Shown: positions 9,502-56,868, counted from the first letter of the stretch. The stretch: DNA of 64,000 nucleotides from Gammaproteobacteria bacterium (GCA_021156165.1 JAJNBM010000002.1:792-64791), one strand, 5' to 3'. The notes: generated by a model from the letters alone, not told the origin. Numbers and translations are program-made.

Positions 9502-9566
9502 CCGTAAAGGGAAAAATCCGTGTCCGCCCAACCACGGGCAGGCACAGGGGCCTGCCCCTACGATAT
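9502..9566. repeat. REP-like palindromic element, copy 1 (core GGGCAGGCACAGGGGCCTGCCCCTACGAT)
   Basis: Member of a ~60-bp palindrome family seen 7 times in this window. This copy lies between purA and hflC. Confidence 0.8.
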
Positions 9567-9694
9567 ACTCTTCACATCTGATTTTTAGGGGGTGTTGCCT
9601 TCGCCCCTCGCGCACCAGTCATGCTAGAGTACTACACTCCTGGTGCTCGAGGGCGCGGCGCCTACCCTAAAAATCAACTGCTGTGAGAACACCT

Positions 9695-10591
9695 CTACTT
9701 CGTCGCACCTTTAGACGAATGGTTAAAATAATCAAAAAATTGACTTTGCGGCGTCACCACGATGATATCTTTAGGATTAGAAAACGTTCTTCTGTAGGCT
9801 TCTAAGCTACGATACAAGCTGTAAAAGGATTCATCTTGAGTATAGGCATCGGCATAAATTTTAGCCGCACGGCCATCCCCTTCGGCACGGATATCATTCG
9901 CCTCTTTTCTAGCCGTTGCGACGATGACGGTGGCTTCGGCATCGGCTTTAGCGCGCACAGCTTCACCTTCGGCGTGTCCTTTGGCGCGTAATTCTGTGGC
10001 GACTTTCTCTCGCTCAGCGCGCATACGTGCAAACACGGAACCGCTCACCTCCGGCGGTAAATCAATGCCTTTGATGCGCACATCGACTACATCTATTCCC
10101 AGTTTTTGTGCACCCTCGTTGGCTTTCTGGTTCAATGCTTGCATAATGCTCGCTCTATCGTCTGATACCACTTCATTGATCGTGCGACGGCCAAACTCAG
10201 CGCGTAAGGCATCGTTTAACTGTTGCTCTAACAATTGATCCGTGTTTTGAATACTGCCACCCGTCGTTTTATAAAATTGTGGTACATTACGAATTCGCCA
10301 TTTGACAAAGTAATCGGCAATAACGCGTTTCTTTTCCACCGTAACAATGGGTGAAGATTTAATGTCTAAATTTTGCAATTTAGTGCTAAAGATCAAAACA
10401 TGCTCTATTACAGGCCATTTGATATGTAATCCAGGCTCAGCAATATAACTACTACCGTCGCTAGCACCTTTCAATGCACCCAGCCGTTGGATCATCGCCT
10501 TTTCATCGACCCGCACTGTATATAAACACATCATTGCCAAAATGATCACGACGACGGCAATAATACCAATGAGTTTCTTATGCTGATTCAT
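9695..10591 (-). CDS. hflC: Protease modulator HflC (SPFH/band-7)
   Basis: N-terminal TM helix, SPFH domain, and conserved position directly downstream of hflK. Confidence 0.88.
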   Translation of the reverse strand: MNQHKKLIGIIAVVVIILAMMCLYTVRVDEKAMIQRLGALKGASDGSSYIAEPGLHIKWPVIEHVLIFSTKLQNLDIKSSPIVTVEKKRVIADYFVKWRIRNVPQFYKTTGGSIQNTDQLLEQQLNDALRAEFGRRTINEVVSDDRASIMQALNQKANEGAQKLGIDVVDVRIKGIDLPPEVSGSVFARMRAEREKVATELRAKGHAEGEAVRAKADAEATVIVATARKEANDIRAEGDGRAAKIYADAYTQDESFYSLYRSLEAYRRTFSNPKDIIVVTPQSQFFDYFNHSSKGATK

Positions 10592-11793
10592 TATTGACTC
10601 CCATCGCTTGAACTAAGATAAGTATTGCCAGATGCAGATGAATCCAAGTAGCTATCACTGCTATTGTTCGCTGTACTCGCTGCTGCTGCCGCTAAATTTG
10701 CGTTTTGTTTATCCTCATTGCTGACGGCACCATCCACAGGATTATCTACCTCACCCGAATCTCCCAACATTTTGTCAATGGGCACATTCAAAAACAATTG
10801 GTTGCCTTTATTCACATCGATAAACAATTTACTGGTGTTAGACAGTACGGATTCTACCGTGCCTAAATAGAGACGTTCCCGCATTACCCCCGGTGAACGG
10901 CGGTATTCTGGTAACATCGCCAAAAAGCGCGCTGTTTCGCCTTGCGCATTCAACACGACTTGTTCTTTGTATGCTTTAGCACTCGCTAATAAACGCTGCG
11001 CTTGCCCCAAGGCTTCTGGAATGACTTTTTCCTGATAACCACGCGCCTGATTAACAATCTGCTCGCGCTCTTGCTCCGCTTTGATGGCATTGTCAAATGC
11101 ATCTTTGACTTCCTCTGGTGGTTTTGCAGGCTGTAAAGCCACATCCACCACTTGCATGCCTACCCCATAACTTTTTAAGATATAACTTAACTGTTCTTGT
11201 ACTCCCGCACGCACATCCTCACGGCCGCTGGTTAATACCTGATCCAAAGTGGTATTACCAATGACCTGGCGCAATGCGCTGGCAGTAGATTCTTGCAAGG
11301 TGGCAACGGGATCGACCACATTAAATAAAAAGTTACGCGCATCGCTAATGCGATATTGGATAGCGATATCGACATTAACTATATTTTCATCTTTCGTCAG
11401 CATATCCGCATTATAGGAATAAGAAAAAACGTGTTGCTCATCTACCTTATAGACGCGATCGATTAGGCGGGGCGCCCAATGCGGGCCGTCGCCCACCGTT
11501 TTAATGTATTTACCCATGCGCAGCACAACTGCTTTTTCCGCCGGTTTAACGATATAAAAACCCGACAATATCCACAAGACAGCGACGACGCCAATAATCC
11601 AACCCCATGGCAAACCATTTCCGGAATCAGGAGCCTGGCCTGAGCCCTTAGGCTTGGCTTTACCGAATACCCGACGTAATTTATCTTGTATGTCTTTCAG
11701 CAATTTATCAATATCTGCCGTATCATTGCCGTTGGCTGGCTTCTTGCCCCACGGGTCATTGTTCTTCTGATTACCAGGTTGATTCCAAGCCAT
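10591..11793 (-). CDS. hflK: Protease modulator HflK (SPFH/band-7)
   Basis: MAWNQPG…GKKP N-terminus, a TM helix, the SPFH domain, and the Ala/Ser-rich C-terminus typical of HflK. Confidence 0.88.
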   Translation of the reverse strand: MAWNQPGNQKNNDPWGKKPANGNDTADIDKLLKDIQDKLRRVFGKAKPKGSGQAPDSGNGLPWGWIIGVVAVLWILSGFYIVKPAEKAVVLRMGKYIKTVGDGPHWAPRLIDRVYKVDEQHVFSYSYNADMLTKDENIVNVDIAIQYRISDARNFLFNVVDPVATLQESTASALRQVIGNTTLDQVLTSGREDVRAGVQEQLSYILKSYGVGMQVVDVALQPAKPPEEVKDAFDNAIKAEQEREQIVNQARGYQEKVIPEALGQAQRLLASAKAYKEQVVLNAQGETARFLAMLPEYRRSPGVMRERLYLGTVESVLSNTSKLFIDVNKGNQLFLNVPIDKMLGDSGEVDNPVDGAVSNEDKQNANLAAAAASTANNSSDSYLDSSASGNTYLSSSDGSQ

Positions 11794-11955
11794 GACTTAC
11801 TCCACTCAGTGATTCTGCCTTAAAAATAAACAATCTATGCCGTGCGCTACATCCGTTATTGCGCAACGTAATATTCTATCATTATTCGTAGATTGAGTAC
11901 TAGCGTGTATTAGAGTACACTATCTTCCAATTGATCCTACCTATAAAGCAGCATT

Positions 11956-55508: not shown

Positions 55509-55551
55509 TTTTATCTTCCCTATTCATTAGCACTACATTATGAGGAACAAC

Positions 55552-56214
55552 ATGAAACAAGATGAACTAAAACAAAAAGCAGCCCTCGCGGCATTAGACT
55601 ACATCCCCGATAATGGCATCTTGGGCATAGGCTCAGGCTCTACCGTGAATCTTTTTATTGCGGCCCTTGCCTCTAAGGCACATTTGCTGGAAGCGACCGT
55701 TGCCAGCTCTGTGGCTTCTTTTAATTTGCTCAAACAATATAAAATACCGGTAGTAGAATTTAACCAAGTGGGCAACATCGATGTATATATCGATGGCGCC
55801 GATGAAATCAACCCCCATTTTCAGATGATCAAAGGCGGCGGCGGTTGTTTATTGCGCGAGAAAATTTTGGCCACTGCAGCCCAGAAATTTATCTGTATAG
55901 TGGATGAATCTAAACAGGTCGAAGCATTAGGTACCTTTCCTATAGCAGTCGAAGTGTTACCCATGGCGCAAAGTTATGTGGCGCGCGAATTGGTTAAATT
56001 AGGCGGGTTGCCCGTGCTGCGTGAAGGCTTTATGAGCGACAATCATAATATTATTTTGGACGTACATCATTTGCCGCTGCATGAACCGCTTGCTTTAGAA
56101 AACAAGTTAGCCGCCATCCCCGGCCTTTTAGGCTCCGGCCTTTTTGCCCACAGACCCGCAGATGGTTTACTATTAGCAACCAGCTTAGGTGTACAATTTA
56201 AGGAACGTAGATGA
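55552..56214 (+). CDS. rpiA: Ribose-5-phosphate isomerase A
   Basis: MKQDELKQKAALAALDYI…GIGSGST…DGADE… is collinear with E. coli RpiA. Confidence 0.9.
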   Translation: MKQDELKQKAALAALDYIPDNGILGIGSGSTVNLFIAALASKAHLLEATVASSVASFNLLKQYKIPVVEFNQVGNIDVYIDGADEINPHFQMIKGGGGCLLREKILATAAQKFICIVDESKQVEALGTFPIAVEVLPMAQSYVARELVKLGGLPVLREGFMSDNHNIILDVHHLPLHEPLALENKLAAIPGLLGSGLFAHRPADGLLLATSLGVQFKERR

Positions 56215-56699
56215 ATGCTTATACCGTTATAGAGTTGAATAAAGAATACATGGGTTTCGATGCTGCGCATTTTACCATTTATTCTGCGACACACCGCGAA
56301 CGGCTGCACGGCCATAATTTTAGGGTTTATGCCAGCCTTACCGCCAAGGTCGATGACAATGGCATGACCTTTGATTATGGTTTATATAAACAAAAAATTC
56401 GTACACTCTGCGATGAATTGCGTCAATATACTTTAATTGCTGATCATTCTCCTTACTTGCGTGTAGTCGAAGACGGCGATTATCTTTATGCTCATTTTTA
56501 TCAGGAAAAAATTCCCTTCTTGAAAAAAGATGTGAAACGCTTACCATTGCGCAACATCACAGTGGAAGAATTGTCGCGCTGGTTCATTGAGAAATTAACG
56601 ATGGATACGAAAAATTTGGAACTCTACAGCATTCAGCACATTGTCATTAAAATCTGTTCCGCTCCCGGGCAATGTGGTTCTTGTGAATGGCGATTGTGA
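56211..56699 (+). CDS. 6-pyruvoyl-tetrahydropterin synthase/QueD-family protein
   Basis: …FDAAHFTIYSATHRERLHGHNFRV… is the PTPS/QueD zinc-binding motif. Confidence 0.65.
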   Translation: MNAYTVIELNKEYMGFDAAHFTIYSATHRERLHGHNFRVYASLTAKVDDNGMTFDYGLYKQKIRTLCDELRQYTLIADHSPYLRVVEDGDYLYAHFYQEKIPFLKKDVKRLPLRNITVEELSRWFIEKLTMDTKNLELYSIQHIVIKICSAPGQCGSCEWRL

Positions 56700-56807
56700 T
56701 ATACTCTTCGCATTTGATTCTTAGGCTTTGTTGCCTTCGCCCATCTCGCACCAGTCCATACTCAATGGCATTCGGTTAAGCCCTAAATTATCGACAAACG
56801 ATGATCT

Positions 56808-56868
56808 ATCGTAGAGACAACCCTCTGTGGCTGCCCATCTAGGGCAGGCACGGGGGCCTGCCCCTACG
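56808..56868. repeat. REP-like palindromic element, copy 7 (flanked by the 15-bp inverted repeat GGCATTCGGTTAAGC/GCTTAACCGAATGCC)
   Basis: ATCGTAGAGACAACCCTCTGTGGCTGCCCATCTAGGGCAGGCACGGGGGCCTGCCCCTACGAA. Confidence 0.8.

Follow-up and report, generated by a model that had tools for sequence, protein, structure and literature searches.

Introduction

Repetitive extragenic palindromes (REPs) of the GTAG-tagged superfamily are defined by a GC-rich hairpin that bears a 5' GTAG at its foot, and head-to-head dimers, with the tags pointing outward, are their commonest dimer type according to Di Nocera et al. (PMC3733652). For subclass 2.4 of the TnpA-Y1 transposases Quentin et al. described in 2018 the motifs NH[IFV]H, WQ and YIxNNP, 'long' and 'double-foot' REPs, in-frame REPs within the transposase gene and an occurrence in many phyla, and their supplement lists GTAGGGGCAACCCTTGCGGTTGCCC and GTAGGGGCGACC... 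units (PMC6006769). Here, we analysed a 64,000-nt stretch of DNA (hereafter the window) from a gammaproteobacterium (GCA_021156165.1, JAJNBM010000002.1:792-64791), in which a dispersed family of palindromes of about 60 bp occurs. We consider it likely that these copies are GTAG-tagged REP elements in head-to-head pairs (REPIN-like), of the sequence type that accompanies subclass 2.4 of the REP-associated tyrosine transposases (RAYTs).

Results

Structure of the repeat unit

Read with the tag first, the unit has the form 5'-GTAG GGGC-NNN-C CCCYGT G-NNN-GCCC-3' with a stem of 8 bp and a loop of 6 nt, and each copy consists of two such hairpin units back to back, the GTAG tags outermost and a spacer of 3–7 nt between them. 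The left unit (A) is GTAG-first on the plus strand and carries 3-bp boxes such as AAC or AGC, the right unit (B) is GTAG-first on the minus strand and carries the box AGG; the boxes of the two units of one pair are different. The initial annotation had described an outer CGTAGGGG...CCCCTACG around a CCTGTGG box and an inner palindrome GGGCAGGCACGGGGGCCTGCCC, which is accurate, the CCTGTGG box being the A unit and the inner palindrome the B unit. Its term "REP-like palindrome family" was correct as well and can be sharpened to GTAG-tagged REP units in head-to-head dimers, probably of the type tied to RAYT subclass 2.4. The GTAG tag was found in 12 of the 15 units of the window (the variants being GTAA, ATAG and GGAG) and was invariant in the units of other genomes.

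These other units were obtained by scanning species-representative genomes for the B unit GGCAGGCACNNNNNCCTGCCCCTA, which gave at least 120 stretches; the loci were seeded by the B unit alone, and the counts given here refer to the matches listed. Among them, 68 non-seed units were chosen by their constant parts alone, with no pairing demanded of the box, and 62 of these carried perfectly complementary 3-bp boxes of 7 types. Analysis of the stem covariation revealed that 98.7% of the cells were paired and that 35 cells were altered on both sides, a level reached by none of 500 shuffles, and pairing fell to 27–54% in slid controls. Head-to-head dimers prevailed (40, next to 12 tail-to-tail and 5 head-to-tail), 36 of the 40 joining different boxes, with AAC+AGG as the commonest combination (21 dimers). 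Head-to-head pairs make up 7 of the 8 sites in the window.

When folded as single strands, the pairs gave either one long A:B hairpin or two local hairpins, with energies between -11.5 and -19.5 kcal/mol and z-scores between -0.8 and -4.7; such mixed folds do not discriminate between models. A comparison of G-T and A-C mismatches in the stem (29 vs 14), considered as a test of which strand is under structural selection, was dropped because most of the G-T mismatches lie at a stem position left free by the seed pattern. Searching Rfam at the gathering threshold matched tmRNA alone in the window and no RNA family on the copies, and the core gave no match when the literature was searched for its exact string.

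Association with a RAYT transposase

In order to identify proteins that accompany the units, all open reading frames (ORFs) of the 120 listed loci were clustered. The only recurrent family adjoining the units was a protein of 175–265 aa whose C-terminal half matches Pfam Y1_Tnp (PF01797, IS200-like). Among the NCBIfam models, that of the REP-associated tyrosine transposase matches the protein best, with a score below the model's cut-off, and relatives of the protein bear the JGI name 'REP element-mobilizing transposase RayT'; a protein search with the RAYT core returned more than 7,900 relatives. The Y1_Tnp gene is present in 6 of the 120 loci (L023, L036, L058, L083, L088 and L116). In L058 units lie on both flanks of the RAYT gene, and the gene itself contains a dimer, situated between HUH motif and tyrosine helix. 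L116, and likewise L058, L088, L036 and L023, have a REP pair in frame at this position, the HUH motif reading MPNHxHG. The in-frame pairs encode VGAxPxxCP ... GQxxGxAPT, often with a tandem-expanded spacer, and the translation of L116 includes ...GQPQGVAPT...LSDVVHRFK.

The motifs read in these proteins, MPNH[VFI]HG (MPNHVHG / NHFHG / NHIHG), LWQRNY and YIxxNP (YIMANP / YIVENP / YIENNS), correspond to NH[IFV]H, WQ and YIxNNP of subclass 2.4 in Table 1 of PMC6006769. Since Quentin et al. describe these RAYT features and list units of this kind, we assign the window family to this described REP type. Among the best 120 of the more than 7,900 RAYT-core relatives, none could be traced to the clade of the window. 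A pattern made from a second, clade-specific repeat gave no matches in the metagenome collection, in which the JGI contig with the genes of the window was not found either, so that this collection lacks the organism.

Half-unit tandems (ENGQARGP x7, GQPHPI x4 and GQPREINN x3) were observed between the in-frame units of three RAYT genes (L036 7680-7890, L088 ~2900-3100 and L116 ~4900-5050), so that the transposase itself bears a hypervariable repeat tract.

Occurrence in distant genomes and phages

The genomes with B-unit loci are metagenome-assembled genomes (MAGs) labelled as about 22 phylum-level groups. In many of the matches the A unit GTAGGGGCAACCCCCTGTGGTTGCCC lies just upstream of the B unit, indicating that the whole pair and not one hairpin only is common to these genomes, and both units are near letter for letter alike across the groups.

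The B unit was furthermore found in 36 viral-contig stretches of IMG/VR (L130–L165, e.g. L138 3010-4566 and L142 7977-9289). No RAYT was found there, the neighbours being ordinary genes of phages (Mu Gp36/Gp37, tail tube, Rha, Mor). (Pro)phage genomes are thus colonised by REP units as well and could carry them from host to host. What paired units 1.3–1.5 kb apart in viral contigs enclose are ordinary Mu-like phage genes and not the insertion sequence (IS) that was looked for between them.

Copies in the window

Repeat finding placed the copies in a single family (Table 1). The 27-nt core pattern with up to 3 mismatches matched six times, always on the plus strand, at an expectation of 0.00 in 100 dinucleotide-preserving shuffles of the 64 kb, which rules out a chance origin; CRISPR and tandem-array readings were ruled out by the dispersed and palindromic nature of the copies. 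A covariance model of the 26-nt unit was built and run over the full 64 kb with filters off. At E<0.01 it returned 13 units, to which a weak one at 36776-36799 is added; in total these form seven two-unit copies and one single unit, and nothing further was found. All seven dispersed copies of the initial annotation, which had claimed at least that number, were recovered where it had placed them, and the single unit adds an eighth site. Its span of copy 4 (51955-52040) has to be divided: the dimer (51982-52037) is present, and the first part is a separate stray CCCCTACGAT, which is either what is left of an older unit or a junction that was duplicated. The statement that most copies sit at gene ends holds for seven of the eight sites, all of them intergenic and five lying between same-strand genes, and fails for copy 5, which is within the reading frame of rsmD.

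Table 1 REP copies and related features of the window. Deviations are counted against the generic consensus; A and B are the left and right unit of a pair.
Feature	Position	Strand	A unit	B unit	Deviations (A; B)	Setting and remarks
Single REP unit GTAGAGGCAGCCCCCCGTGGCTGCCC	8178..8203	-			1	R1 model 41.4 bits, E=2.9e-6; 5 nt past the purA stop, ahead of an mlaE-like gene
REP dimer copy 1	9502..9566	+	9504-9529	9536-9561	8; 0	A badly decayed, B perfect; between hflC (stop 9695) and purA (start codon 9475-9477, from sequence reading and Pfam match), both on the - strand
REP dimer copy 2	36774..36832	+	36776-36799	36802-36827	12; 2	A with deletion, weak; between - strand genes for a PNP_UDP_1 phosphorylase and a solute-binding protein
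REP dimer copy 3	38059..38117	+	38060-38085	38091-38116	4; 1	- strand operon, between ABC permease gene (stop 38137) and solute-binding protein gene
Stray CCCCTACGAT	51955..51964	+				Identical to the 3' end of copy 4
REP dimer copy 4	51980..52040	+	51982-52006	52011-52037	7; 2	Divergent spacer between ftsY (-) and M16 peptidase gene (+)
rsmD, 16S rRNA m2G966 methyltransferase	54805..55446	+				Pfam PF03602 in two stretches; protein identical to a MAG protein named rsmD
REP dimer copy 5	55103..55164	+	55105-55130	55136-55161	3; 3	In frame within rsmD
REP dimer copy 6	55449..55508	+	55451-55476	55482-55507	5; 3	Starts 3 nt past the rsmD stop, ahead of rpiA
REP dimer copy 7	56808..56868	+	56811-56836	56842-56867	4; 0	B perfect; between convergent genes
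22-nt inverted repeat around copy 7	56760..56908					Arms 56760-56781 and 56887-56908, 95% complementary

A long TTG-initiated ORF that spans copy 3 is probably over-extended, the Pfam match beginning only at residue 54-83. REP units give an open reading, and the longest purA ORF (8209-9615), the solute-binding ORF (37001-38176) and the called ftsY of the relative L122 (2156-3220; 354 aa vs 329) are extended N-terminally across them; these extensions are likely start-site errors. For annotation this means that REP units create false N-terminal extensions and odd VGAxPxxCP / GQxxGxAPT peptides, and gene callers should mask them.

Turnover of sites among relatives

Syntenic loci of relatives were retrieved via RsmD and PurA. 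At the rsmD-rpiA junction the genes overlap (ATGA) without a spacer in three relatives, and the window holds about 112 extra bases with copy 6. The ftsY-M16 spacer is empty in L124 and carries a tandem array of B-type units in L122, and in the window a pair follows CCCCTACGAT. At the rsmD site a single 'double-foot' hairpin CCGTAGGGGCAGCCCCCCGTGGCTGCCCCTACG (GTAG...CTAC) was found in L122 / Bin_72_12, a decayed stretch of the same length in L124 and L126, nothing in more distant homologues and a full pair in the window, and the site of the singleton is taken by another short motif in L127, L128 and L129. The closest relative by PurA (92% identity) holds no units in 35 kb and another organism none in 28 kb; units are present in two further related MAGs (L028, L032, L122). 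Sites that are empty, differently filled or decayed are what one expects where an element spreads and then decays in individual lineages, and they fit mobility. The range of states seen at orthologous sites (empty, dimer, double-foot, tandem array, decayed) could moreover serve to date and model REP turnover.

Another palindrome family, CCGAGCCGCGACCGTNAGGGAGCGG, was observed in the relatives (L032 ~6306-6370, a full hairpin with 24-nt arms; L127 9897 and 11280; L128 3996 and 12713; L129 9961; L122 2142). It is absent from the window, and in the relatives it fills purA-flanking spacers where the window has GTAG REPs.

The copy within rsmD

Copy 5 encodes LVGVAPNGCPNRAGTETHPYD in frame, directly ahead of the DPPF motif. 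The structure PDB 2IFT aligns to RsmD residues 4-96 and 137-209 only, with the REP insert between these stretches, and the copy would add about 21 residues to a surface loop of RsmD. Together with its decayed form, which is common to a small clade, the in-frame copy is a parallel to the protein-coding palindromes of Rickettsia.

Polarity and unequal decay

All eight sites have one orientation, though the neighbouring genes lie on both strands. The GC skew of the plus strand was negative or about zero in 32 of the 32 intervals calculated. The B units and likewise the singleton read GTAG-first on the minus strand, which is the G-rich one by GC skew and corresponds in sequence to the lagging-strand template. 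The two units of a pair have decayed to different degrees (Table 1), the A unit being worse than the B unit in six pairs and equal to it in one.

Host lineage and neighbouring repeats

The window has a G+C content of about 43%. Its RsmD and PurA are identical to proteins of a MAG labelled Gammaproteobacteria bacterium, and RsmD was also found on a JGI metagenome contig, whereas the PurA proteins of named taxa share only 61-64% identity with that of the window. A gene pair for DotU and IcmF was observed at 28750-32957, and DotI/IcmL genes in relatives (L128 12797-13988; L129 17913-19233); the Dot/Icm genes suggest a host-associated gammaproteobacterial lineage bearing Dot/Icm type IVB secretion. 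Beside the tmRNA (18098-18479) lies an ORF of 299 aa (18801-19700, minus strand) with a strong match to the Ras/Rab small-GTPase domain of eukaryote type (PF00071, E=4e-52); its product is a candidate for a secreted effector, in what may be a horizontally acquired spot. An ORF with a metallo-beta-lactamase fold (42246-43010, minus strand) has the anti-Pycsar Apyc1 family PF23023 as its best Pfam match (90 bits, cut-off 50).

Next to copy 2 the initial annotation had noted a MITE, a miniature transposable element with inverted repeats, at a distance of 10 bp. The MITE-like palindrome (36840-37003) is real, with a length of 164 bp and 27-nt outer arms that are 93% complementary, and is located 7 nt from the copy; a second, reversed copy (21608-21739, 88.6% identical over 132 nt) is not beside a REP. 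A further long-hairpin repeat of about 125 nt is dispersed in the clade and 84-88% conserved (window 9562-9692 and 56698-56756; L122 7752-7876; L126 5691-5813; L129 17777-17898). One copy of it abuts REP copy 1, and no Rfam family matches it. Of this element, which is whole in L122, only the first 59 nt are left behind the PTPS gene of the window, and the break coincides with the inverted repeat around copy 7, so that the insertions are nested.

Discussion

The paired architecture, the compensatory changes in the stem and the company of a RAYT in other genomes argue for GTAG-tagged REP elements. A RAYT encoded elsewhere in the genome, now or formerly, would bind the folded GTAG-GGGCAGGC hairpin on single-stranded DNA, cut it and rejoin it; binding, cutting and rejoining are here modelled on E. 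coli TnpA-REP and on the IS200/IS605 family. Cutting and rejoining would copy or move units, most probably on the lagging-strand template in replication. Most copies would then be neutral intergenic passengers, and copy 6 may act as a terminator after rsmD. Single-strand, lagging-template transposition is established for IS608, and the uniform polarity together with the asymmetry between A and B would fit this mode of the IS200/IS605 relatives, a match that is suggestive only.

Several points weigh against this explanation. Neither in the 64-kb window nor in the loci of the relatives was a RAYT gene found (tblastn; Pfam on ORFs of at least 100 aa), 64 kb being too little to decide the matter. 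The eight sites belong to one replichore, which leaves the polarity argument suggestive only, and given the decayed A units many of the copies may be dead relics. A clean target duplication or excision footprint was not found at the sites, and mobility is read from presence and absence between species and was not observed as such. To our knowledge, RAYT-driven transposition of REPs has never been directly shown in any organism, only cleavage and rejoining in vitro.

With respect to the position of the copies a function at the RNA level has to be considered, according to which copies at gene ends stop transcription or guard mRNA 3' ends and are kept by that function instead of by transposition. 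The intergenic setting of most sites would agree with such signals, as would copy 6, whose hairpin is followed by CTCCGTTTTA right past the rsmD stop and was flagged as terminator-like, and the singleton, which is followed by TTTT on the strand of purA; for E. coli, moreover, REPs have been reported to attenuate transcription and to stabilise mRNA in work cited in PMC3733652. However, a terminator scan in gene direction was passed by one of the 8 sites only, the copies keep a single polarity amid genes on both strands, copy 5 stands within a coding frame and copy 4 in the promoter region of divergent genes, and relatives lack copies at corresponding sites. The near-identity of the units over about 22 phylum-level groups and their place in RAYT genes point to recognition by a protein. 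We regard a mainly RNA-level role of the copies as unlikely, and the terminator or stabiliser function proposed by the initial annotation is weak, as copy 6 alone combines a hairpin with a T-run in the direction of the flanking gene and the other seven sites do not.

The copies could also be specific landing sites of an IS110/IS1111-type element, as is the GTAG REP inside QMITE2 for IS1111 in Coxiella burnetii, and targeting of REPs by this family is well documented (PMC5896051, PMC11187229). Three of the eight sites touch other small palindromic repeats, and the 22-nt inverted repeats around copy 7 are reminiscent of full-size QMITE2. Against this stand the ORFs of the window (at least 100 aa), none of which matches any transposase family, the RAYT as sole recurrent transposase in the 120 REP-seeded loci listed, the phage genes enclosed by unit pairs in viral contigs, where no IS occurs, and the presence of the neighbouring palindromes away from REPs. 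We regard this explanation as very unlikely; the analogy with IS1111 targets drawn in the initial annotation finds no support in the window and none in the inspected loci, where no IS lies beside the units. By analogy with IS110/IS1111 landings on REPs elsewhere (PMC5896051, PMC11187229), it could still apply in the rest of the genome. Hardly conceivable, finally, is an origin as cores of classical MITEs, i.e. elements derived by deletion from a DDE-type IS, flanked by target duplications and ending in inverted repeats, that are no RAYT substrates. The 149-bp segment bounded by the 22-nt inverted repeats around copy 7 and the other MITE-like palindromes of the window would speak for it, but outer repeats are seen at one of the eight copies only, flanking direct repeats were not seen, the remaining copies end at GTAG/CTAC tags, and units elsewhere accompany a Y1 and not a DDE transposase.

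Beyond the assignment to GTAG-tagged REPs of the subclass 2.4 type, a single REPIN lineage can be envisaged, albeit as a rather doubtful extension: one heterotypic AAC/AGG pair on a constant GTAG-GGGC...CCCYGT...GCCC scaffold, letter for letter the same in about 22 phylum-level groups and in Mu-like phages, while the transposases have drifted to 45-55% identity. The scaffold would be a code read by the protein with a free 3-bp box, phages could ferry the units, and in the window the unit tagged on the G-rich strand (the lagging-strand template) would stay intact as its partner decays. If true, this unequal decay would be natural evidence of strand-specific renewal of REPs by RAYTs at the replication fork. 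We know of no demonstration of such strand-specific renewal in vivo.

Comparison with known systems

The Rickettsia palindromic elements (RPEs) resemble copy 5 as palindromes that persist in frame within housekeeping genes, where they add a peptide at the protein surface, in a bacterium associated with a host. They differ in size (100-150 bp for RPE-1, about 60 bp here) and in that one of eight sites is intragenic in the window; the CGTC-tagged superfamily, for which no transposase is known, includes RPE-4 and RPE-6 (PMC3733652). Coxiella burnetii QMITE2 (Wachter et al. 2018, PMC5896051) shares the GTAG REP core, the location mostly in 3' UTRs or intergenic regions and the existence of small (REP-only) and large (inverted-repeat) forms, copy 7 having the layout of the large form. 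In contrast to QMITE2, no IS1111-like element at a fixed point of the REP was found among the window ORFs of at least 100 aa, direct repeats of 7-11 nt were not seen, and outer inverted repeats occur at copy 7 only. The Coxiella REP was placed in family GTAG-3 by Di Nocera et al. (PMC3733652).

E. coli REP/BIME and Pseudomonas REPINs with their RAYTs have in common with the window inverted REP pairs of two sequence types (cf. Y and Z2 in BIMEs), and further a REPtron around a single-copy Y1 transposase and presumed recognition of GTAG plus hairpin on single-stranded DNA. Their RAYTs, however, belong to subclasses 2.2 and 2.5, their stems are longer and bulged, no REP lies in the transposase gene, and they are confined to Proteobacteria. 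The GTAG-tagged REP superfamily as a whole (Di Nocera et al. 2013, PMC3733652) resembles the window family in its terminal GTAG, a GC-rich stem of 6-13 bp, complementary stem changes that define subfamilies, a head-to-head majority and a mostly intergenic location, in the window at 7 of 8 sites in 64 kb, with some in-frame intragenic copies encoding 20-30 residues; the consensus of the window is absent from the text and supplements of that work.

The closest relatives are the REPs of subclass 2.4 (Quentin et al. 2018, PMC6006769; group 4 of Bertels). As in the window, GTAG stands directly on the stem, which starts with GGGC and ends with GCCC, and 'double-foot' variants occur, of which the rsmD site of L122 has one. 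Between its HuH and Tyr motifs the transposase gene contains in-frame units, the motifs are alike, the type is spread over many phyla, and GTAGGGGCAACCCTTGCGGTTGCCC of Cytophaga hutchinsonii in the supplement equals the A unit of the window but for the loop (PMC6006769). The exact units with the loop CCCYGT and the box AGG are absent from the tables of PMC6006769, and the host here is an uncultured, low-GC, Dot/Icm-bearing gammaproteobacterium, whereas the group is rare in Proteobacteria according to PMC6006769 and Bertels et al. What is new is thus a gammaproteobacterial member of a described REP/RAYT type, the type itself being known: a clear and probably host-associated example for a group whose known members come mostly from Cyanobacteria, Bacteroidetes and Chloroflexi. 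Three features go beyond the ordinary for such a member, namely the copy that lies in frame in rsmD, the decay that differs between the strands and the letter-level conservation of the units over distant phyla and Mu-like phage contigs.

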